From a virus (lineage: Duplodnaviria > Heunggongvirae > Uroviricota > Caudoviricetes), in IMG/VR virus record IMGVR_UViG_3300018414_000006, positions 64,001 to 119,460 of that record: a stretch of 55,460 nucleotides of DNA. The stretch is one strand, 5' to 3'. The position numbers and the translations under genes were made by a program. Below are positions 8,937 through 50,906 of this stretch, one piece after another. Each line of letters starts with the position of its first letter. Within the stretch, counting starts at the first letter, position 1. The notes below the pieces were generated by a model. The model searched no databases. It had not been told where the DNA came from and saw only the letters and a list, made by a program, of their open reading frames with translations.

Positions 8937-9311
8937 TTAAATAGGAACTTTGTTTTGAACTTTCGCAAAGGAAATTCTTGTGCCTTTGCAGGTTATACCA
9001 CAAACACAAATACCATTTGTCGGATCTGGTGTTGTTATCAAAAAATCGTTTGAATGCTCTTGTTCGGATACTGGTTCCCTCCAGCACACTTTGACTTCTT
9101 GTGTAGGAACTGAAACAAGATTTAATTTTTGTTGCTCCAGATTAAAAGGAGTGAATTTGAATTCTTGTGATTGTTCGACAAGTGTTACGGATATGGCAGT
9201 CTGTACAGGAACAAACTCTTCATTGGAAAGAACAAGACTATCATAGTCAACGTCAATTATTCGTTGAGTGAGTTCAGAAACAATCGGTATAAGAAATAGG
9301 CGAATGTACAT
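8937..9311 (-). CDS. Hypothetical protein
   Basis: 124-aa ORF with a late-motif variant 37 nt upstream. Confidence 0.55.
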   Translation of the reverse strand: MYIRLFLIPIVSELTQRIIDVDYDSLVLSNEEFVPVQTAISVTLVEQSQEFKFTPFNLEQQKLNLVSVPTQEVKVCWREPVSEQEHSNDFLITTPDPTNGICVCGITCKGTRISFAKVQNKVPI

Positions 9312-9348
9312 AATTATCCGTGAATCTAAAAAGTTAACGAAGTTGCAC

Positions 9349-9360
9349 TATAAAATTTAT
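9349..9360 (-). promoter_or_regulatory. Late-promoter motif variant (ATAAATTTTATA)
   Basis: AATTTTATA core overlapping the stop of the upstream gene, oriented toward ATG 9311. Confidence 0.35.
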
Positions 9361-10993: not shown

Positions 10994-13240
10994 TCATTGT
11001 TCGTAGGGTTTACCTTCAACAATAGTTGCTATTCCATTTTCCTTGATCACTGTAAAATTCTTTGCGTTCGGATAGTCTTCATCTTTTGGAGTAATCACAA
11101 TTACAGATGGAATCAGCGTGCTCAATACTTTTATAACCTCTTTAAGCATATCAACAGTTTCTTCAGACATGTGTGCAGACGGTTCATCAAGAATAATGGC
11201 AGAACAACGTTTATGCGATGGTACATACGCAAGCAATGCACACACCAGTATCAAAGTAAACAGTGTTGTTTCTGCGCCTGAAAGTTTTCTTACATCAGTT
11301 GTTATAACCTTGTTTCCACTTTTACGATGCACTAACAGAGAAACACGATTATCCCAACGAAACTCGAATCGGTAGTTTTCTATAAAAATTCTCGAAGCGT
11401 AAAGATTAACCCGTTTCATGAGATCATGACTTATTGCTTGAATGACCATTCTTTTGATATTTTTGTCCTGATATCCCTGAACGAGATGCCTGAGCGGTTC
11501 TTCATTTTTAAGCTTTTCTTTCAGTTCACGCAAGCGTGTCCGAATATCATTCAACTGATTCTTGACTGCATTGTGTACATCGAGTTTTGATTGAATTTTA
11601 GAAAACACTTCCTGAACCTGATTCATTTGCTCTGAAAGATCTTTGGAACTTTGTGCTTTCAGTATATCTTTTTTTGTCAGATTCTTGAAATCAATAACCG
11701 TATCAAGATGAGGTTTCATGTATTCAAGAAGTGCTTTTCGTTCTCGAATTTCTATCAACATTCTTTTAAGTACTTCCGTTTGAAGTTTTTTACCTTCAAA
11801 CGGTGCAGGCTCTTTTGGCAAGTTACGAATTTCTTCATGAATCTTGGCCATTGCCAGATATTTCTTTTTTGCTTTTTGTACATTCAACAGTTCCTGTTTT
11901 TTCAAAGTCAGTTCTGTTTTTATTTCTTTTCGCTTTTTGTATGCAATTAGATATTTTTCCGCCTCGTCATAAATATTCAATTTATGACGTATCTCTTTCA
12001 ACTTCTTCTGAATAAGTGCAGGACTCTTGATAGTCACAACCTGACCACACGTTTCACAGATACCCTTTTTGAACTTTTCCGCATGCTTCAGATGATGTGT
12101 ATAAACTCTTTCGAGAGTTTCGAGATTTCCTCGATCTTCATCTGGCGCAACTGTTTTCTCAGGCAGAGCCGGCAAATCATGAATTAGATTTTCAAGTTGT
12201 ACTGTTATCTGTTTTTCCTGTGCTCGATATTTTATATATTTTCTATAGGCATTATCTGTTTCTTTCAACGCATTGCCGTAGCCTGTTTCTTCAATCAGGT
12301 TCACCGCATCTTCGCTAAGATCTGAATATGCTTTTTCATAATTAGCATTATCACGACGATACTGATCCCAGGCTTCAGCATCCCTGGATTCCTCGATTGT
12401 CTGTTTCAGTTCAAACGCATTCAGCTTTTCGGCTTCTTCAAATTCTTCAAAACTGATATTGTTGTTACAGGCAATGTTGAGTTCTTTTATCTGCTTTTGT
12501 GCAGATTCAGCAAACCTTATTAACCGAAGTGTTTCTTGTACTTCAGTGAATACTGTTTGAAGATTTTTCATTCTTTCTTGAAGTTTTACAACACGTTGTT
12601 TATAATTGTCATAGTCTTTTTCTGACAGCAGATTTTCTTTCTGTTTTTTATATTGAATCAACAGTTCGTTATAAGCAGTTTTTACACGTTGTAACTTGTT
12701 CAACTCTGCTACATAAAGTTTTCGTTCATTATCTAGTTGATGAAGATTAAAAAAGGAAGTGAAAAAAGATTTACGCTGTGCTGAAGTGCCCATTACAAGA
12801 GGATGTGGAACACGCGAATCCAGATGAATGTACGTGCTATATTCTTCTTGTGTTATTGGCCATAGTTTTTCAAGATTGGCTTTTGCAATAGATGCAGTAC
12901 GATAATCTTTGTCTTCTCCATTCACCTTGATGGTCAGTTTTTCACTTTTGCCTAAAGCCTGCTTTCGAACAAGAACTTTCTGTCCACGCGCATTGATAAA
13001 TGCTAATGATCGATTGCCCGTACGAAGTCTGTCTTCTTTCTGTCCTACTATAGGATCATCGTAGAGAATGTCTGATACTGCTCCAAACATAAGGCTCTTG
13101 CCTACCCAGTTAGCATTTCTGGAAGATTTGCCACCAGAACGGTTAAGTCCATATATTACAGACAGTCCTTTTGGAATTTTAAACTGCACATTTTGCAATG
13201 GACCTACATCTCTAAGGTGAATGGTGTGAAGGATATTCAA
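10994..13240 (-). CDS. sbcC: SbcC/Rad50-like SMC-family ATPase
   Basis: N-terminal GLN...GKS Walker A, long coiled coil with zinc hook CETC, signature LSGAE, Walker B IILDEP. Confidence 0.88.
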   Translation of the reverse strand: MNILHTIHLRDVGPLQNVQFKIPKGLSVIYGLNRSGGKSSRNANWVGKSLMFGAVSDILYDDPIVGQKEDRLRTGNRSLAFINARGQKVLVRKQALGKSEKLTIKVNGEDKDYRTASIAKANLEKLWPITQEEYSTYIHLDSRVPHPLVMGTSAQRKSFFTSFFNLHQLDNERKLYVAELNKLQRVKTAYNELLIQYKKQKENLLSEKDYDNYKQRVVKLQERMKNLQTVFTEVQETLRLIRFAESAQKQIKELNIACNNNISFEEFEEAEKLNAFELKQTIEESRDAEAWDQYRRDNANYEKAYSDLSEDAVNLIEETGYGNALKETDNAYRKYIKYRAQEKQITVQLENLIHDLPALPEKTVAPDEDRGNLETLERVYTHHLKHAEKFKKGICETCGQVVTIKSPALIQKKLKEIRHKLNIYDEAEKYLIAYKKRKEIKTELTLKKQELLNVQKAKKKYLAMAKIHEEIRNLPKEPAPFEGKKLQTEVLKRMLIEIRERKALLEYMKPHLDTVIDFKNLTKKDILKAQSSKDLSEQMNQVQEVFSKIQSKLDVHNAVKNQLNDIRTRLRELKEKLKNEEPLRHLVQGYQDKNIKRMVIQAISHDLMKRVNLYASRIFIENYRFEFRWDNRVSLLVHRKSGNKVITTDVRKLSGAETTLFTLILVCALLAYVPSHKRCSAIILDEPSAHMSEETVDMLKEVIKVLSTLIPSVIVITPKDEDYPNAKNFTVIKENGIATIVEGKPYEQ

Positions 13241-13243
13241 GAT

Positions 13244-14140
13244 TTAACCTGCAAGTTCTTTGATCAGAAAATAAAGTTCGGATGAAAGCAGATCAGTAGC
13301 GGGTAATTGAAAAGTCAATGCTTGAGCATGTACCTTGATCAATCGTGCATTAACCGCAGCTAATGTACCTAGACTCAGTTTCATATCTTTTGTTGCCTGT
13401 TCAACTGCTTTGTTCTGTGCAGTCCACCATATTTTGGAATGCTTACCAACAACTGCACGATTAAGAAGGAAGGAACTGATCTGAGTAATTTTCTTGACGA
13501 ACATGAACTGATCAGTTACATCAAGCAGCGCTCTTTGTACTCCAGCAAATTTTAGCCCATAAAGACTTGTCATAAGCTCTACAGCAAGACGATCATCTGA
13601 AGATTCAGTTGAGGCAATAACTTCAGAAAGATCTTTGGCTGTTAATTCTTCTGGCGCATCTTCCAGACCATCATAATATTGCTGAAGACTTTGCATCAGA
13701 TTGCCAATAGTGCGCATTTCACCATTAGCATTTTTCACAAGTGACTTTAGAACAGACTTATCTTCAGTCAATACATAATTCATTTTTTCGCCCTTAGCAA
13801 TACGAATAGCCTGTTTCAACAGATCTGAATTGCTGTGCGGTTCAAGAATGAATTGAGTACATCTACTGAGAATTGCTTTTCCTACTGTAGCTCCAAATTT
13901 TGAAGGCTCACTCGAACAGATAATCCACATTGTTCCCGTGCTGGGTTCTTCTAATGGTTTCAACAAACAGTTATGCACTAATAGAGCACTTTCCTCATCC
14001 TGACATACGAAAAAATTTTCATTATCCTTTATTTGAAAATCATATACATCTCTAGGGGATTCAACAGCAAGTACGCTATTTGTAATTTTATTTCGTGTTA
14101 CACTAAATATGTCATTAATCATGTTAAATTCAAGTTCCAC
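13244..14140 (-). CDS. dnaX: C-terminal half of split DnaX-like clamp loader: C-intein (51-57 aa) fused to C-extein
   Basis: Block F DVYDFQIKDNENFFV and block G LLVHN, then extein CLLKPLEEPS ... ILSRC (SRC motif). Start is GTG 14140 or ATG 14122. Confidence 0.92.
   Translation of the reverse strand: MELEFNMINDIFSVTRNKITNSVLAVESPRDVYDFQIKDNENFFVCQDEESALLVHNCLLKPLEEPSTGTMWIICSSEPSKFGATVGKAILSRCTQFILEPHSNSDLLKQAIRIAKGEKMNYVLTEDKSVLKSLVKNANGEMRTIGNLMQSLQQYYDGLEDAPEELTAKDLSEVIASTESSDDRLAVELMTSLYGLKFAGVQRALLDVTDQFMFVKKITQISSFLLNRAVVGKHSKIWWTAQNKAVEQATKDMKLSLGTLAAVNARLIKVHAQALTFQLPATDLLSSELYFLIKELAG
13970..14140 (-). mobile_element. C-terminal fragment of naturally split intein (IntC)
   Basis: Ends His-Asn (Asn codon 13970-13972), followed by +1 Cys (13967-13969). 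Confidence 0.9.
14081..14092 (+). promoter_or_regulatory. Late-promoter motif TGTAATTTTATT, antisense inside IntC, pointing at the endonuclease
   Basis: Identical to the copy at 22481; 28 nt before ATG 14121. Confidence 0.5.
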
Positions 14141-15809
14141 GGAAGTTATTAAAAAAATGAAACAATATGGATATGCCCCACTTGAGAAAAACAGGGGATT
14201 GCAAGTAAAACAATTAATAAAATGTTTAAAACATAAAACAGAATTTTTAGGATATCCTTATTTTATATTAAATGGTAGTAAAGTTTTTGCCTGTGAAAAA
14301 TGTGGAAAAGAACATATAGACAATACAGATGCAGCAGGACTTAATTATTGGAAATTTCCTAATTTATTAAAATATGCGCTTCACAACCACGGAAGATATA
14401 AACATAAAATATTGAAGATTGAAACTGACACAAAAAGAGTAACATTATTATGCCATTCTTCACATAAGATATTTACAACAAATAAGATACTTGCAGAATT
14501 TAGACAAGGAAAAACAGAATGTTTTCATTGTTCTAATGAAACGAAAAAATTAAAATTTTTAAAAATTAAACAGAAAAATACAATTTACTACAATAAAAAT
14601 TATGAAAACAAGTATTATTCATATAGTGTAGAAGGCAAGGTCTGTAAAATACATGGCCTGCTTAAAAAAGGAACTACGAAATGTTATAGTTGCTTTCCGG
14701 CTAAGTATGTTTCGCCATTTAAAAATATGAACAAGGATAAAAGGAAAAATTTTTTGCATAATTTTTCCGTCAATAAAAAGAAATTAGAAGAAAGGTCCAG
14801 GGTCACTTCGTTATTTTTAAAGTTATATCCAAAACTAGACAATATAAAGTTATCAAAACTGCCAAAATCAAGAACTGAATGGCTATTTATTAATAATAAC
14901 GAAAAACTTGTTTTTCATTCTATTACTGGAAAATTAAGAGGTATCAATGAAAAATTTGGGCATACCTCAAAAAATCTTGAACTACATTTATTAAATGAAG
15001 GCATTCAAATGGCAAAACGATTAACACTTAATGACATTCTTTTTAGAATCGAACAAAAGTTTAAAGGAAAAATAAAAGTTTTACGTACCAAAACTATTGA
15101 AAAAACCAATACCAGTTCCCGTAAAATTTTACTTGAATTAAAACATACTTTTTGCGGATCTGTGTGGAAAACATATTCATATAAACTTTTTCAGACAAAA
15201 TATGGTTGTCCCAAATGCGCTTCAAAAATGGCAGGCAGGACCAACAGTCACAAAATGGCACCTTTGGAAAAGTATAGAAAAATACTTGAAAACCGTGTTC
15301 CACACATGAAAATATTAAAGAAGATTAAATCTGAAATTAAAACATCAACTGCATATAATTTTGTGGTTGAATGTAAAAGATGTAATACAAAAATGAATTT
15401 ATCTGGAAGAGATATTAGAACTATACACAGTTGTATTTCTTGTAATCCTAAATTAGGAAATTCTAGCCGGTCTCGTATATGTCAATCTTGGCTAATAGAG
15501 TTAGAAAAATTCTATGGTATAACCATACAAGGGTGCAACTCAAAAGAAAAATTGATACGTTCCGCAGAAAAAATATATCGTGTTGATGGTTTTCACAAAG
15601 AATCAAATACTATATTTGAATTTTTAGGCGACTACTGGCACGGAAATCCTGACTCTTCTTTTTACAATAAAGAAAAATACAATAAAACTTTTTCAAGATT
15701 AATTTGTTTACATAAAAAATACAATATTGTTTATGTATGGGAGAGTGACTATCTAGCAGGACTCCCCCATTCTGGATTTCTAGGAAGGAATCCTATTTTA
15801 TTTCTGTAA
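14109..15809 (+). CDS. Free-standing homing endonuclease, Vsr-like (EDxHD/PD-(D/E)XK) with zinc-ribbon repeats
   Basis: C-terminal YRVDGF...IFEFLGDYWHGNP. Repeated CxxC modules (CEKC, CFHC, CKIHG/CYSC, CPKC, CKRC/CISC). K-rich and very AT-rich. Lies between split-intein halves. Start may be 14121 or 14157. Confidence 0.82.
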   Translation: MSLIMLNSSSTEVIKKMKQYGYAPLEKNRGLQVKQLIKCLKHKTEFLGYPYFILNGSKVFACEKCGKEHIDNTDAAGLNYWKFPNLLKYALHNHGRYKHKILKIETDTKRVTLLCHSSHKIFTTNKILAEFRQGKTECFHCSNETKKLKFLKIKQKNTIYYNKNYENKYYSYSVEGKVCKIHGLLKKGTTKCYSCFPAKYVSPFKNMNKDKRKNFLHNFSVNKKKLEERSRVTSLFLKLYPKLDNIKLSKLPKSRTEWLFINNNEKLVFHSITGKLRGINEKFGHTSKNLELHLLNEGIQMAKRLTLNDILFRIEQKFKGKIKVLRTKTIEKTNTSSRKILLELKHTFCGSVWKTYSYKLFQTKYGCPKCASKMAGRTNSHKMAPLEKYRKILENRVPHMKILKKIKSEIKTSTAYNFVVECKRCNTKMNLSGRDIRTIHSCISCNPKLGNSSRSRICQSWLIELEKFYGITIQGCNSKEKLIRSAEKIYRVDGFHKESNTIFEFLGDYWHGNPDSSFYNKEKYNKTFSRLICLHKKYNIVYVWESDYLAGLPHSGFLGRNPILFL

Positions 15810-16092
15810 TAACAATTCCAGTACACTTGGACACTTTTTCTGAAGAAATATATCCATATTCTTCTGTATATACCGGATGATTTGCTGTTACATCAGCAAA
15901 TCCCCCCAGATTAACAGATTTTTCTACGGAAAAACTTTTTTTGCTTGCTAATATTTCTTTCCATTCGATTTTATTGGAACTATGATTAAAAGATAAAGCA
16001 TATATTTTTTCTCCTTTTTCAATACGATCATGCAATTCTTTGGCAGTTATTTTACCTACTGTAGTGATTATTTTAGTTTCTGCTTCTATGCA
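15793..16092 (-). mobile_element. N-terminal fragment of naturally split intein (IntN)
   Basis: Starts at Cys codon 16090-16092 after SAQ; TxxH block B present. Confidence 0.9.
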
Positions 16093-16464
16093 TTGTGCCG
16101 ATGCATTATTTGATACCAACTGTTGTGCTTCATCCACAACAATGATACGTTTGTTTTTCTGAGGTCTGAATTTTGAAATCTTGATCAATTCTCGAATGTC
16201 ATCGATACTTCGTTCATTGGCAGCATTGACTTCTTTATAATCCTGCATTCCTTCAACTGAACACTCATTGATAGCAGTAGCAATACATCTGGCAAGTGTT
16301 GTTTTTCCAGCAGATGGTGGTCCGAAAAAAGCAATAGCTGAAGGTAGCTTGTTTGTTTTGATCATTCCCTGAATACGTGTAACAACCCCGGTGTGGCCAA
16401 TAATTTTTTCCAGAGTGCGTGGCCTGTATTTTAAATGCAATGCGCTGGTTTGTTGCATAGTCAT
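15793..16464 (-). CDS. dnaX: N-terminal half of split DnaX-like clamp loader: N-extein (124 aa) fused to N-intein (99 aa)
   Basis: KYRPRTL, Walker A GPPSAGKT, EVNAA, Walker B VVDEAQ. Then intein block A CIEAETKI and block B VTANHPVY. Stop TAG at 15793. Confidence 0.92.
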   Translation of the reverse strand: MTMQQTSALHLKYRPRTLEKIIGHTGVVTRIQGMIKTNKLPSAIAFFGPPSAGKTTLARCIATAINECSVEGMQDYKEVNAANERSIDDIRELIKISKFRPQKNKRIIVVDEAQQLVSNNASAQCIEAETKIITTVGKITAKELHDRIEKGEKIYALSFNHSSNKIEWKEILASKKSFSVEKSVNLGGFADVTANHPVYTEEYGYISSEKVSKCTGIVITEIK

Positions 16465-16685
16465 TCTTCCCCTGTATAACGTTCAATTTCTTTATTGATA
16501 TAGATGCCCACCGCTTTTCCTATTTGAAGATACAACTGATTTCTCACTTGACCAATATCTTCATCATCATTCAGAATATGTGTTTCTGACAGAGTTACGG
16601 TAACAGGTTCATACTGACGAATCTGTACAGTTTTTGAAACTGTTAAAGTAATCGATTCCGGTATACATTTAGTCTTTGTAGACAT
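16461..16685 (-). CDS. Small hypothetical phage protein
   Basis: 74 aa, coupled to dnaX-N; ITLTVSKTVQIRQYEPVTVTL beta-hairpin type motif. Confidence 0.6.
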   Translation of the reverse strand: MSTKTKCIPESITLTVSKTVQIRQYEPVTVTLSETHILNDDEDIGQVRNQLYLQIGKAVGIYINKEIERYTGEE

Positions 16686-17343
16686 TTTTGTTCTTCATTC
16701 CATTTAATATATTGTTAACAGAATAATCAATCCTTGATTTATATTTTTTCAGGATTTTTTTATTATTCCAGTATCTTGCTTTTAATGAATTTATAAATTC
16801 ACCTAGCGTTCCGTTAAATTCTCCATGAGTAACACCAATTCCAGAAAAATTTTTATATATAGCAAGATCGTGCAATTCAATATTTTTGAATATCAATATT
16901 TCATTCAAATGTCCAACATATGCGTCTTTTGCAAGATAGAAAGTTCCAGACAGTTTAATATTTCCATATACACATGCATTATATATTAGTGAAATATCGC
17001 CCAATAAACAGGCATTATTGTATAAAGTAGAATTGTTCCATAAAGTTGTTCTATTTCTCAATTTTGAATTATCATGAATACTCGAATTTCCCCATAACTT
17101 TGCATGTTCAGATATAAAAGAGTTCTCATGCATGCTTGCATTACCTCTCACTCCTGAATATTCAATAGCACAGGCATCATCATAAATCCAACAGTTGCCA
17201 TTGTGTGAAAGATTATGTTCAGACTGCACCCATCCACCGAGGTCACCAGCCTTTACATTTGCAAAGTCTTTCAATGCCTGAATTCTACTAACCTTGATGC
17301 CTGTTACGATTTTATTTAATCGTGTGAGTCTGAATTTTCTCAT
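16669..17343 (-). CDS. Hexapeptide-repeat (left-handed beta-helix) protein
   Basis: GDLGGWVQSEHNLSHNGNCWIYDDA followed by six-residue xGNA/S-type repeats. Likely start ATG 17343. Confidence 0.7.
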   Translation of the reverse strand: MRKFRLTRLNKIVTGIKVSRIQALKDFANVKAGDLGGWVQSEHNLSHNGNCWIYDDACAIEYSGVRGNASMHENSFISEHAKLWGNSSIHDNSKLRNRTTLWNNSTLYNNACLLGDISLIYNACVYGNIKLSGTFYLAKDAYVGHLNEILIFKNIELHDLAIYKNFSGIGVTHGEFNGTLGEFINSLKARYWNNKKILKKYKSRIDYSVNNILNGMKNKNVYKD

Positions 17344-18277: not shown

Positions 18278-18300
18278 AAATGATTACTCCTCACTAACAA

Positions 18301-18312
18301 TGCAATTTTATA
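18301..18312 (+). promoter_or_regulatory. Late-promoter motif TGCAATTTTATA
   Basis: Between divergent genes, 23 nt before ATG 18336. Confidence 0.6.
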
Positions 18313-18335
18313 TTAAGAAAATAACAGGAGTTACA

Positions 18336-22480: not shown

Positions 22481-22492
22481 TGTAATTTTATT
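22481..22492 (+). promoter_or_regulatory. Late-promoter motif TGTAATTTTATT
   Basis: At the start of the 300-nt intergenic region before gene 22760. Confidence 0.5.
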
Positions 22493-22537
22493 GCAGCAAG
22501 TTTAAAGCAATAATCAAATATCTTTTCTGAACAACCT

Positions 22538-26200: not shown

Positions 26201-26212
26201 TACAATTTTATA
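26201..26212 (+). promoter_or_regulatory. Late-promoter motif TACAATTTTATA flanked by AACTAC/GTAGTT inverted repeat
   Basis: Intergenic, 47 nt before the holin ATG. Confidence 0.55.
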
Positions 26213-42269: not shown

Positions 42270-44009
42270 TTAAACTGATAAAAAAGAGGAGTTCATCAAT
42301 GTTAACTGATCATCCACAGAGGATTGAAATCCAGGAGGACTGAAATTAAAAGATCCCGAAGATCCTTTGGGCGAGTAAGTTTCACCGCCTACTGAATAAC
42401 TAGGTGCAATATTTGGTACAGAAAATCCGGGAGCATAACTAACAGGATTTGCAGAAGTAGAATATGTTCTTCCCGAAACAGTGAAAGTTCTGTTGGTCAG
42501 TCCCCTGCTTAAATAAACATTGTTTTGAAAATTACTGTTGCCTTGAATTGTATTGCTGTCTATAGATGAAATCTGTGGAGAAGATGCCATCTCAGAAAGT
42601 TCAGAAATACTTTTGGATGGTTTGTTAAATGAAGGTTCATAAGATTTTGTGGTACCTTTAGCAGGTGACACAAAGGACTCACCTGCATCCAGAGTGTCTG
42701 GTGTATTAAGAGGCAATGAAGTTGGTGCAGGAGGCATTCTTTTTTCATGATGAATGCCTAGAAAATCTGCAATTTTATCTGCCAGATAATCACCAACACC
42801 CGCTATCCACGTTTCCATTTGTGGAAGATTGAAATTTGCTATTTTGTTGGCAATCCAGTTACCTACATCTTTCGCATCTTTTACAACTTCAGTTACTGCT
42901 TCGCTGGTCCATTTTTTTATATTATCCCAGGTAAACAATTCTTCAATGTTTTGTGCAACGGAAGTCCATAGAGTGGGTGTTAGCAACAGAGACATCAATC
43001 CAAGTTTTAGTGCTTCTAACCAGTTATTGCCCTTTACTTTTTTTGCTTTAGATTTGGTTGTGTCATGTTCACTTCCTATCCATCTAGAAAAAGACTTCCA
43101 CCAGTTATCTGCTTTTCTGGTTTCTTTTTTATCCACATCTTCCAGACTCGGAGTGTTTGTAGTAGAAGACATTGCACCCCTAGGGGATACCATATCTTTC
43201 AGGACATTCAATTTCTCCGGCAGTGTGACGCCTATAAATTCCTGCATCATGCGCAGTAATCTTTGTGGAAGATCTTCGTGAGTTACAGTTGATGTGGTTT
43301 CACCAGCGGTAAGTAACGGAGCGGCAATTGCCGCTGGTAGAAAGTGTGATTCTACATCTATAACATTAGTTTCTTTTTCCGGACCTGTAAGTAGCGACAT
43401 TCCACGATCTGCGATCGTTGGATACTTTTCTGAGTATGCACCTGACTGATTTTCACTACGATTTTTTACTACAAAATTTTGTAAGCCCTCGATTATTCTA
43501 TTGGCTATTGAAGTTTCGCGCGCTTCCCAAAAACGTGCATCTTCAAGACGTTCTACCAAAAGATCATTAGCTGCTAATAAATCATCGGTAGTAGGTAAGT
43601 CTTTTGGAGGAAGAAAGCTTTTGAGATCAGTGAACTTTATTCCAATACTACGATCCAGTTCATCAGTGTGTTCATAAATCTCAAGCGATAGAATTTCTTT
43701 AATGTCTTGAATCAGTTTTGGAAATTGAATACTAAGTGCAGTATTCAATTCTTTTTCAAATGCGCTAATTCCATCTTCAATTTTTATGTTGCCAGCTTTT
43801 ACAACAGACTTTGCCTGTTCTTCAGCAGATTTCACAGCGGCATCAAAAACTTCTTGCGCCAGTTTCGATAGAGAGCCTAACACAGAAGACAATTTAGCAA
43901 TATCACTTGCATTTACATTTCCTTGTATAAGTTTATTTAAAGGAATGTCTGCCCTATTTTGCAAAGCACGCCATTTGTTTTTTTCTTTATCTGATCGAAA
44001 CTGGAGCAT
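42270..44009 (-). CDS. Tape-measure-like protein
   Basis: Helical, with a hydrophobic segment and spaced Trp repeats, directly downstream of the chaperone genes. ATG 44009 follows SD AGGTG. Confidence 0.5.
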   Translation of the reverse strand: MLQFRSDKEKNKWRALQNRADIPLNKLIQGNVNASDIAKLSSVLGSLSKLAQEVFDAAVKSAEEQAKSVVKAGNIKIEDGISAFEKELNTALSIQFPKLIQDIKEILSLEIYEHTDELDRSIGIKFTDLKSFLPPKDLPTTDDLLAANDLLVERLEDARFWEARETSIANRIIEGLQNFVVKNRSENQSGAYSEKYPTIADRGMSLLTGPEKETNVIDVESHFLPAAIAAPLLTAGETTSTVTHEDLPQRLLRMMQEFIGVTLPEKLNVLKDMVSPRGAMSSTTNTPSLEDVDKKETRKADNWWKSFSRWIGSEHDTTKSKAKKVKGNNWLEALKLGLMSLLLTPTLWTSVAQNIEELFTWDNIKKWTSEAVTEVVKDAKDVGNWIANKIANFNLPQMETWIAGVGDYLADKIADFLGIHHEKRMPPAPTSLPLNTPDTLDAGESFVSPAKGTTKSYEPSFNKPSKSISELSEMASSPQISSIDSNTIQGNSNFQNNVYLSRGLTNRTFTVSGRTYSTSANPVSYAPGFSVPNIAPSYSVGGETYSPKGSSGSFNFSPPGFQSSVDDQLTLMNSSFLSV

Positions 44010-44027
44010 ATAGTCACCTGTCAAACG

Positions 44028-50868: not shown

Positions 50869-50894
50869 TGGAACATTTCTTTTTCCTTGTATAC

Positions 50895-50906
50895 AATAAA
50901 ATTGCA
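50895..50906 (-). promoter_or_regulatory. Late-promoter motif TGCAATTTTATT
   Basis: Directly after the terminase stop, 26 nt before ATG 50868. Confidence 0.6.

Follow-up and report, generated by a model that had tools for sequence, protein, structure and literature searches.

What does a homing endonuclease gene do for itself, or to its host gene, by lying backwards in the gap of a split intein? The question is raised by a locus of a tailed phage (Caudoviricetes; IMG/VR record IMGVR_UViG_3300018414_000006), analyzed here within a stretch of 55,460 nucleotides (positions 64,001 to 119,460 of that record) that is called the window and to which plain coordinates refer. This stretch forms the second half of a viral contig of 119,460 bp, with 38% GC and a completeness of about 50%. 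In it, a clamp-loader gene is divided between two minus-strand open reading frames (ORFs), each fused to one half of an intein, and a nuclease ORF occupies the plus strand between them. A first-pass annotation, made from the letters alone, had suggested a timing or antisense switch that couples homing to the shutdown of clamp-loader synthesis. According to the analysis, the antisense cassette belongs to a known kind of mobile element, of which it represents a new and conserved layout, and is not a demonstrated regulatory switch. The best explanation of the whole, a homing cassette in an unusual orientation with a late-type promoter of its own, is favored here with some reserve.

An intein-split clamp-loader gene

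The clamp loader's N-terminal portion (N-extein; 16093-16464, minus strand) comprises 124 aa with a P-loop and a Walker B motif and ends in ...VSNNASAQ. It matches positions 2-113 of PHROG 5846 'clamp loader' (E = 1e-36) as well as the Pfam families AAA and DNA_pol3_delta2. The frame continues into the N-terminal intein half (IntN; 15793-16092, minus strand), which has 99 aa with cysteine first (CIEAET...) plus a stop codon at 15793-15795, and the joint ORF (15793-16464, minus strand) encodes 223 aa. IntN scored 26.8 bits on the NCBIfam model TIGR01445 intein_Nterm (cut-off 24.5) and resembles the NrdJ-1 split intein (PDB 8ubs, E = 1.2e-6).

The C-terminal intein half (IntC; 13970-14140, minus strand) ends in ...LLVHN and scored 19.3 bits on TIGR01443 intein_Cterm (cut-off 15.6). 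Only ATG 14122 or GTG 14140 can serve as its start, giving 51 or 57 aa, respectively. It shares an ORF of 298 aa (13244-14140, minus strand) with the clamp loader's C-terminal portion (C-extein; 13244-13969, minus strand), which begins with the +1 cysteine (CLLKPLEEP...). The C-extein matches PHROG 5846 at positions 112-356 (E = 5.5e-41) and is 64% identical to the uninterrupted gene of a relative, L001. The junction residues, CIEAET... of IntN and ...VHN of IntC followed by the +1 C, were read directly. Protein trans-splicing would join the two clamp-loader halves.

Fractured genes were described by Dassa, London, Stoddard, Schueler-Furman & Pietrokovski (2009; PMC2677866) in eight host enzymes, the clamp loader not among them, with all three coding regions on the same strand. 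In the window, the enzyme gene likewise lies in two adjacent ORFs in their original order and orientation (positions 2-113 and 112-356 of the same PHROG), the intein halves are in frame with both gene parts (Cys1, terminal His-Asn and +1 Cys), and a free-standing endonuclease gene stands between the halves. The locus is a 'fractured gene' with its endonuclease gene on the opposite strand. A blastn search of 13000-17000 against GenBank phages gave no match.

The antisense nuclease

The nuclease ORF (14109-15809, plus strand) is antisense to its neighbors, and lies between the N half with IntN (16464-15793, minus strand) and IntC with the C half (14140/14122-13244, minus strand). The longest frame runs from ATG 14109 and encodes 566 aa; ATG 14121 and ATG 14157 are alternative starts. 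At the 3' side, the ORFs of the nuclease and IntN overlap tail to tail by 17 bp (15793-15809), as the first-pass annotation had noted. Its claim that the nuclease overlaps both intein halves extends to the 5' side only if the start is 14109 or 14121. The protein proposed by the gene caller (P0001, 550 aa) begins at ATG 14157, which leaves a gap of 16-34 nt to IntC instead of a 5' overlap. The back-to-back start codons in one palindrome that had also been pointed out are present and in frame (CATG 14120-14123, with ATG 14121 on the plus strand in the nuclease frame and ATG 14122 on the minus strand in the IntC frame), but the pair is not conserved: the divergent starts of relatives are 4-42 nt apart. 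ATG 14121 keeps N-terminal residues that align with the relatives P0002 and P0008, and lies 37 nt from the AATTTT core of the box discussed below, the same spacing as in two other relatives (L002 and L010). The nuclease is predicted to start at one of 14109, 14121 and 14157, and use of the shared CATG is likewise a prediction only.

Searches of the nuclease protein against Pfam, PHROGs and NCBIfam yielded nothing significant; Pfam matches to GpA_ATPase, P18 and DUF723 were under their cut-offs and were dropped. An exhaustive HMMER search recovered 1386 library representatives at E <= 0.001, most of which share only the last 100-250 residues. In its N-terminal region of about 440 residues (14109-15428, plus strand), the protein has six CxxC pairs, at residues 62, 138, 192, 367, 422 and 442, in repeated small beta/zinc-ribbon (treble-clef-like) modules. 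This part is presumed to be the DNA-recognition region. PDB profile matches to eS27 zinc-ribbon look-alikes and to an antibody chain were set aside as chance or generic zinc ribbon. The whole-protein model has a mean predicted local distance difference test score (pLDDT) of 79 and a predicted template modeling score of 0.35, and its matches in BFVD (E down to 4e-17) are proteins named treble-clef zinc finger, homing endonuclease and group I intron protein.

The remaining residues, 441-566 (15429-15806, plus strand), form a nuclease domain that, as modeled, has the fold of Vsr and of I-Bth0305I. An alignment of 33 rows covering the C-terminal part showed conserved VDG, the Glu of an FEF tripeptide, GDxWHGNP and WE. 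Residues D493, E504, D508, H511 and E545 (566-aa numbering) are invariant or nearly so in the 33 relatives and are candidate catalytic residues. Foldseek placed 1vsr (E. coli Vsr) and 3r3p (the catalytic domain of I-Bth0305I) at the top of 350,542 chains for the AlphaFold model of the domain (pLDDT 89.6). VIA-align gave Z = 8.5 to 1cw0 (97 residues aligned, root-mean-square deviation 2.9) and Z = 8.1 to 3r3p (91 of 97 aligned); RAP-domain proteins with the same fold score equal to or above the Vsr matches. Pfam PF18741 (MTES_1575) gave weak matches only, in 11 of the 33 relatives. The fragment of the genome at hand holds no second copy of the nuclease domain.

Conservation of the layout and an empty site

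The backwards layout was also found at eight other metagenomic phage loci (the P0002 contig, L002, L007, L008/L009, L010, L011, L012 and L013). Each full-length homologue examined has the same place and orientation as the nuclease of the window. An opposite-strand ORF of 219-225 aa with AAA/DNA_pol3_delta2 overlaps its 3' end by 8-62 nt, while at its 5' side an ORF of 286-303 aa begins back to back with it across a short spacer. All of the loci have homologous intein halves and one and the same insertion site. The nucleases in this layout are 23-46% identical to the window protein, and in each of the seven loci whose DNA was checked the ORF, of 560-608 aa, is unbroken.

The expected target of such a cassette is seen in L001, a syntenic 217-kb relative in which the order of tail fibre, Cas4-like nuclease, clamp loader and SbcC is kept. 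Its clamp-loader orthologue is an uninterrupted gene of 377 aa. The site reads VSNNAAAQ|TLLKTLEE, and 32 of 48 nt match the joined extein ends of the window. Judged by sequence, this uninterrupted allele is an empty site, the expected target for homing.

These comparisons bear on a different reading, in which the protein is a domesticated phage nuclease that does not home but is selected by the phage, for example because it excludes related co-infecting genomes or degrades DNA. Pairwise nuclease identity (25-47%) tracks C-extein identity (34-58%), with r = 0.65 over pairs that are not independent. Such tracking is expected of long vertical residence, and the frames have stayed intact across loci whose nucleases have diverged that far. 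A domesticated nuclease, too, could have diverged alongside the host gene for a long time. Nevertheless, the intein-less allele in a syntenic relative means that targets are available, and nine homologous nucleases at exactly one site are typical of site-specific homing. Moreover, a nuclease that excluded competitors by cutting their empty allele would be doing mechanistically what homing does. Domestication is accordingly regarded as rather unlikely.

Other features of the relatives were seen in passing. Several inteins occur in replication and recombination genes of these phages; one cassette-carrying relative has a RecA-like gene (L013:8515-9827) with weak Intein_splicing and faint LAGLIDADG_3 Pfam matches. 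On the contig of the closest relative, that of P0002, the clamp-loader N half is followed directly downstream by two radical-SAM genes, which the window lacks at that place.

A promoter-like box within the IntC codons

The first-pass annotation had placed a late-promoter motif inside the IntC coding region, 28 nt upstream of the nuclease gene. The motif is there: TGTAATTTTATT lies at 14081-14092, 28 nt before ATG 14109, as part of a longer promoter-like box, TGTAATTTTATTTCGTG (14081-14097, plus strand), within IntC codons T15-T20 as counted from GTG 14140. On the IntC strand no in-frame start codon lies downstream of the box, and the box is therefore necessarily within the IntC reading frame.

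The motif is enriched, gene-proximal and oriented. TGYAATTTTAT occurs six times in the window against 0.38 expected, and none of 100 shuffles reached six. Across the genome, TG[TC]AATTTTAT[TA] has 11 sites, 10 of them in non-coding DNA, which makes up about 7.5% of the genome according to a crude ORF map. All 10 intergenic sites are co-oriented with the next gene, and the eleventh is the copy at 14081. The nine sites for which the distance was measured begin 28-107 nt upstream of the ORF start as mapped; the resolvase site, misplaced on the ORF map, is the exception. With a position weight matrix (PWM), the box at 14081 scored 24.2, compared with 20.8-27.6 for the eight intergenic exact-match sites.

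The downstream genes suggest the class of the box. Copies precede a tail spike, a tail-fibre-like cluster, a prohead protease and a RuvC-like resolvase, and variant boxes at 26204 and 46644 precede an endolysin/tail cluster and a tail-tube operon. In the window, the box at 18301-18317 (plus strand) has its AATTTT core 32 nt before the tail-spike start at ATG 18336 (PHROG 14558), the box at 22481-22497 (plus strand) lies ahead of the plus-strand cluster with the tail-fibre-like gene, and that at 50890-50906 (minus strand) has its core 27 nt before the start of the RuvC-like resolvase. The label 'late' is a reasonable one on these grounds, and a late-type promoter within the IntC codons is plausible. 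A literature search found no published promoter study for this phage group.

In the relatives, the core [AC][AC]TTT[TG]A[TA] begins 30-38 nt before the nuclease ATG in six of eight loci. It is within IntC in the window, L002, L010 and L012 and outside it, in the spacer, in L007 and L008, and thus it keeps its distance from the nuclease start but not its place relative to the IntC codons. In L007, the clamp-loader C half is 47% identical to that of the window, the only two plus-strand genes are the nuclease and an orthologue of the tail spike (37% identity), and each of the two stands behind a divergent spacer of 32-35 nt with AAATTTTATA.

The box could also be something other than a working promoter, such as a chance or coding by-product of the Asn-Lys-Ile-Thr codons or a regulator site, with the nuclease silent or expressed otherwise. 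AAAATT (Lys-Ile) is common to the IntC of L002 and L010, there is no Shine-Dalgarno sequence between the box and ATG 14109 or 14121, and in several copies the left half of the box is imperfectly palindromic with the right half. Nevertheless, the copy at 14081 is the sole high-scoring site (PWM score of at least 20) within a real gene in about 221 kb of coding strand scanned, and the chance of such a match within 90 nt upstream of the nuclease ORF is estimated to be below about 1e-3. The IntC residues over the box (Thr-Arg-Asn-Lys-Ile-Thr) are not conserved among relatives, and in L007 and L008 the box is placed in a spacer, outside IntC. A symmetric operator would not be expected to be co-oriented with the downstream gene in all copies, and the nuclease ORF is intact in every locus checked. 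A box without promoter function is considered unlikely.

Four further observations concern the box and its neighbors. The tail-spike ORF listed from 18222 truly begins at ATG 18336, as judged from alignment with L001 and L007, and the Cas4-like nuclease ORF begins at TTG 18277, leaving a divergent region of 58 nt (18278-18335) with the box TGCAATTTTATATTAAG. At 9340-9356 (minus strand), a variant, ATAAATTTTATAGTG, stands ahead of the ORF 8937-9311 within the replication-gene block; it is near-identical to the box before the L007 nuclease gene. The 11-mer copy at 42768-42778 (plus strand), within the minus-strand gene 42270-44024, deviates after position 11 and was rejected as probably due to chance; it lies 61 nt before an antisense ORF of 150 aa (42829-43281) that has no family match. 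Finally, outside the window, the prohead protease whose gene follows a copy of the box (L005:12388-14370; genome 52388-54373) carries additional residues, 128-208, that match part of a PHROG with the annotation anaerobic ribonucleotide reductase.

Homing cassette or regulatory switch

In the favored reading, that of a homing cassette with its own late-type promoter, the nuclease would cut intein-less clamp-loader alleles of co-infecting relatives, and repair of the double-strand break would copy the cassette into the cut allele. The nuclease gene would be transcribed from its own promoter, represented by the box TGYAATTTTAT(T/A), which is placed in the poorly conserved first codons of IntC. 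RNA of the early or middle clamp-loader operon would hold the nuclease gene in antisense form only. With the gene in this orientation, such RNA could not yield nuclease, and synthesis of the protein would have to await the firing of its own promoter, probably a late one. The orientation would replace the hairpins that hide the ribosome-binding site (RBS) in same-strand fractured genes, and the reverse complement of the cassette ends would supply the IntN stop and the IntC start.

Several results, besides the co-divergence with the host gene noted above, weigh against this reading. As for the nuclease, the earlier designation 'Vsr-like' holds at the level of the fold, in Foldseek and VIA-align, but not at that of the sequence. 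The Foldseek E-values are weak (0.014 for 1vsr and 0.023 for 3r3p) despite a probability of 0.98, and PDB searches with single-protein/3-row and 33-row profiles gave no significant sequence match to Vsr or I-Bth0305I. As for translation, neither ATG 14109 nor ATG 14121 has a Shine-Dalgarno sequence, and a weak one (GGAAG) is present only at ATG 14157. The box is a genuine motif and precedes virion and lysis genes, but it also precedes a large helicase, an ATPase and genes of unknown function, so that 'late' is not exclusive.

The remaining points concern the relatives. The chance of finding the core pattern is 0.1-0.8% per locus, for a pattern that was defined after the data had been seen. In four loci, part of the box is an IntC Lys-Ile or Gln-Ile codon pair; since this codon pair is homologous, the four are not independent evidence. 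The PWM of the window finds no box in L001, L002, L008, L009 and L010, and in L007 only a weak match that is not at a promoter, while the GC-rich 217-kb L001 has a single YAATTTTAYA. A promoter consensus for the whole group is therefore not established. In L001, the sole TAATTTTACA in 217 kb lies just upstream of the tail-fibre orthologue (L001:3680-3700, minus strand).

If the box does fire, what would become of the two overlapping transcripts? No convincing plus-strand terminator was found after 15809, and antisense RNA over the N half is for this reason likely once the box is active. Read-through of operon RNA to the C half is likely as well, on the basis of a negative search for minus-strand promoters inside the nuclease gene. 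RNA folds of both strands at the nuclease 5' and 3' ends were no better than shuffles (z = +1.0, +1.1, +0.4 and +0.2), and these z-scores gave no RBS-hiding 5' hairpin at the nuclease gene. Scans of the minus strand within the nuclease gene detected no sigma-70-like site and no box copy; the sigma-70 scan, with 25 sites against 24.7 expected, is uninformative. No enrichment in the window was seen for TGTTG-N8-CAACA, the operator pattern of the early region; near the locus it has one match, at 16121, with one mismatch. A weak hairpin followed by a T-run is present at 15774-15803 (plus strand), in the last 12 nuclease codons, which encode the family-conserved tail SGFLGRxxIxFL. The hairpin (15774-15793) was dropped as a designed terminator: it is weak, its site is taken up by conserved codons of the C-terminus, and RNA terminated there would lack the stop codon.

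On these data the switch of the first-pass annotation can be weighed. In it, late antisense transcription of the nuclease gene would collide or pair with clamp-loader operon RNA, which has to traverse 1.7 kb before IntC, the C half and sbcC are reached, and homing would thereby be coupled to clamp-loader shutdown. The convergent geometry with overlapping 3' ends is kept in nine of nine loci, and both the minus strand of the nuclease gene, with neither a sigma-70-like site nor a box copy, and the lack of a convincing terminator after 15809 are as the switch would have them. Nevertheless, an insertion in the reversed orientation produces convergent overlap by itself, and no regulatory purpose is required. 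Clamp-loader protein from earlier synthesis would still be present late in infection, in relatives the shared CATG gives way to spacers, and no structured RNA element emerged from the folds at either end of the nuclease gene. Such a switch is improbable. A similarly low probability is given to the broader view that the orientation is adaptive, with a nuclease promoter that times its own expression and throttles clamp-loader synthesis late. If this were true, a mobile element would be part of the early-to-late switch of the phage, conserved across many lineages.

Relation to known systems

As in the fractured genes of Dassa et al. (PMC2677866), endonuclease and intein coding regions overlap and a late-promoter element, putative in the window, accompanies the endonuclease; the IntN of the window is also detectably related to the NrdJ-1 intein of that study. 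Unlike there, the endonuclease is antisense, the overlap is tail to tail with IntN, and the box lies within IntC codons. The combination of same strand, 5' spacer and hairpin described in that work was not found at this locus.

As modeled, the nuclease resembles I-Bth0305I and the 'EDxHD' family (Taylor et al. 2011, PMC3239194; 3R3P) in its C-terminal Vsr-type fold, its conserved Asp, Glu and His positions and its large N-terminal region, presumed to recognize DNA. It differs in having zinc-ribbon/treble-clef modules where I-Bth0305I has a NUMOD/helix-turn-helix N-terminus, and in its last conserved acid, a Glu (WE).

Antisense homing endonucleases (HENs) have been described within contiguous inteins: Vsr-like and LAGLIDADG HENs in actinobacteriophages (bioRxiv 10.1101/2025.01.02.630785) and, according to the account given in that preprint, a LAGLIDADG HEN in the Synechocystis dnaX intein (Gorbalenya 1998). 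The endonuclease is opposite to the intein strand in these cases too, and the Synechocystis example is also in a clamp-loader gene. In those inteins, however, the frame stays open across the antisense gene, whereas in the present case it is closed, and two genes have taken the place of the single host gene. The preprint knows Vsr-like HENs in split inteins only from the context of Dassa et al. Literature searches brought up no report of split-intein halves with an endonuclease gene on the opposite strand between them.

The timing proposed for the cassette has a counterpart on the sense strand. In work by Edgell and Belfort on Aeh1 mobE and T4 I-TevI, an endonuclease gene within an early or middle gene is reportedly expressed late from its own late promoter, and an RBS hairpin is said to keep early read-through RNA untranslated. 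In the present locus, unlike these, the orientation itself would block translation from operon RNA.

Implications

The findings leave the current understanding of inteins and of homing unaltered. They add the phage clamp loader to the host enzymes known from fractured genes and bring in an endonuclease on the opposite strand, and they provide a natural example of a promoter-like element that shares its sequence with opposite-strand codons. The NrdJ-1-related split intein and the zinc-ribbon plus Vsr nuclease could become tools.

For the phages themselves, the layout has been stable over at least nine diverged lineages with the nuclease intact, which is longer than a simple homing cycle of invasion, fixation and decay predicts. 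The arrangement suggests a hairpin-free way in which a selfish nuclease may escape production from the mRNA of its host gene.

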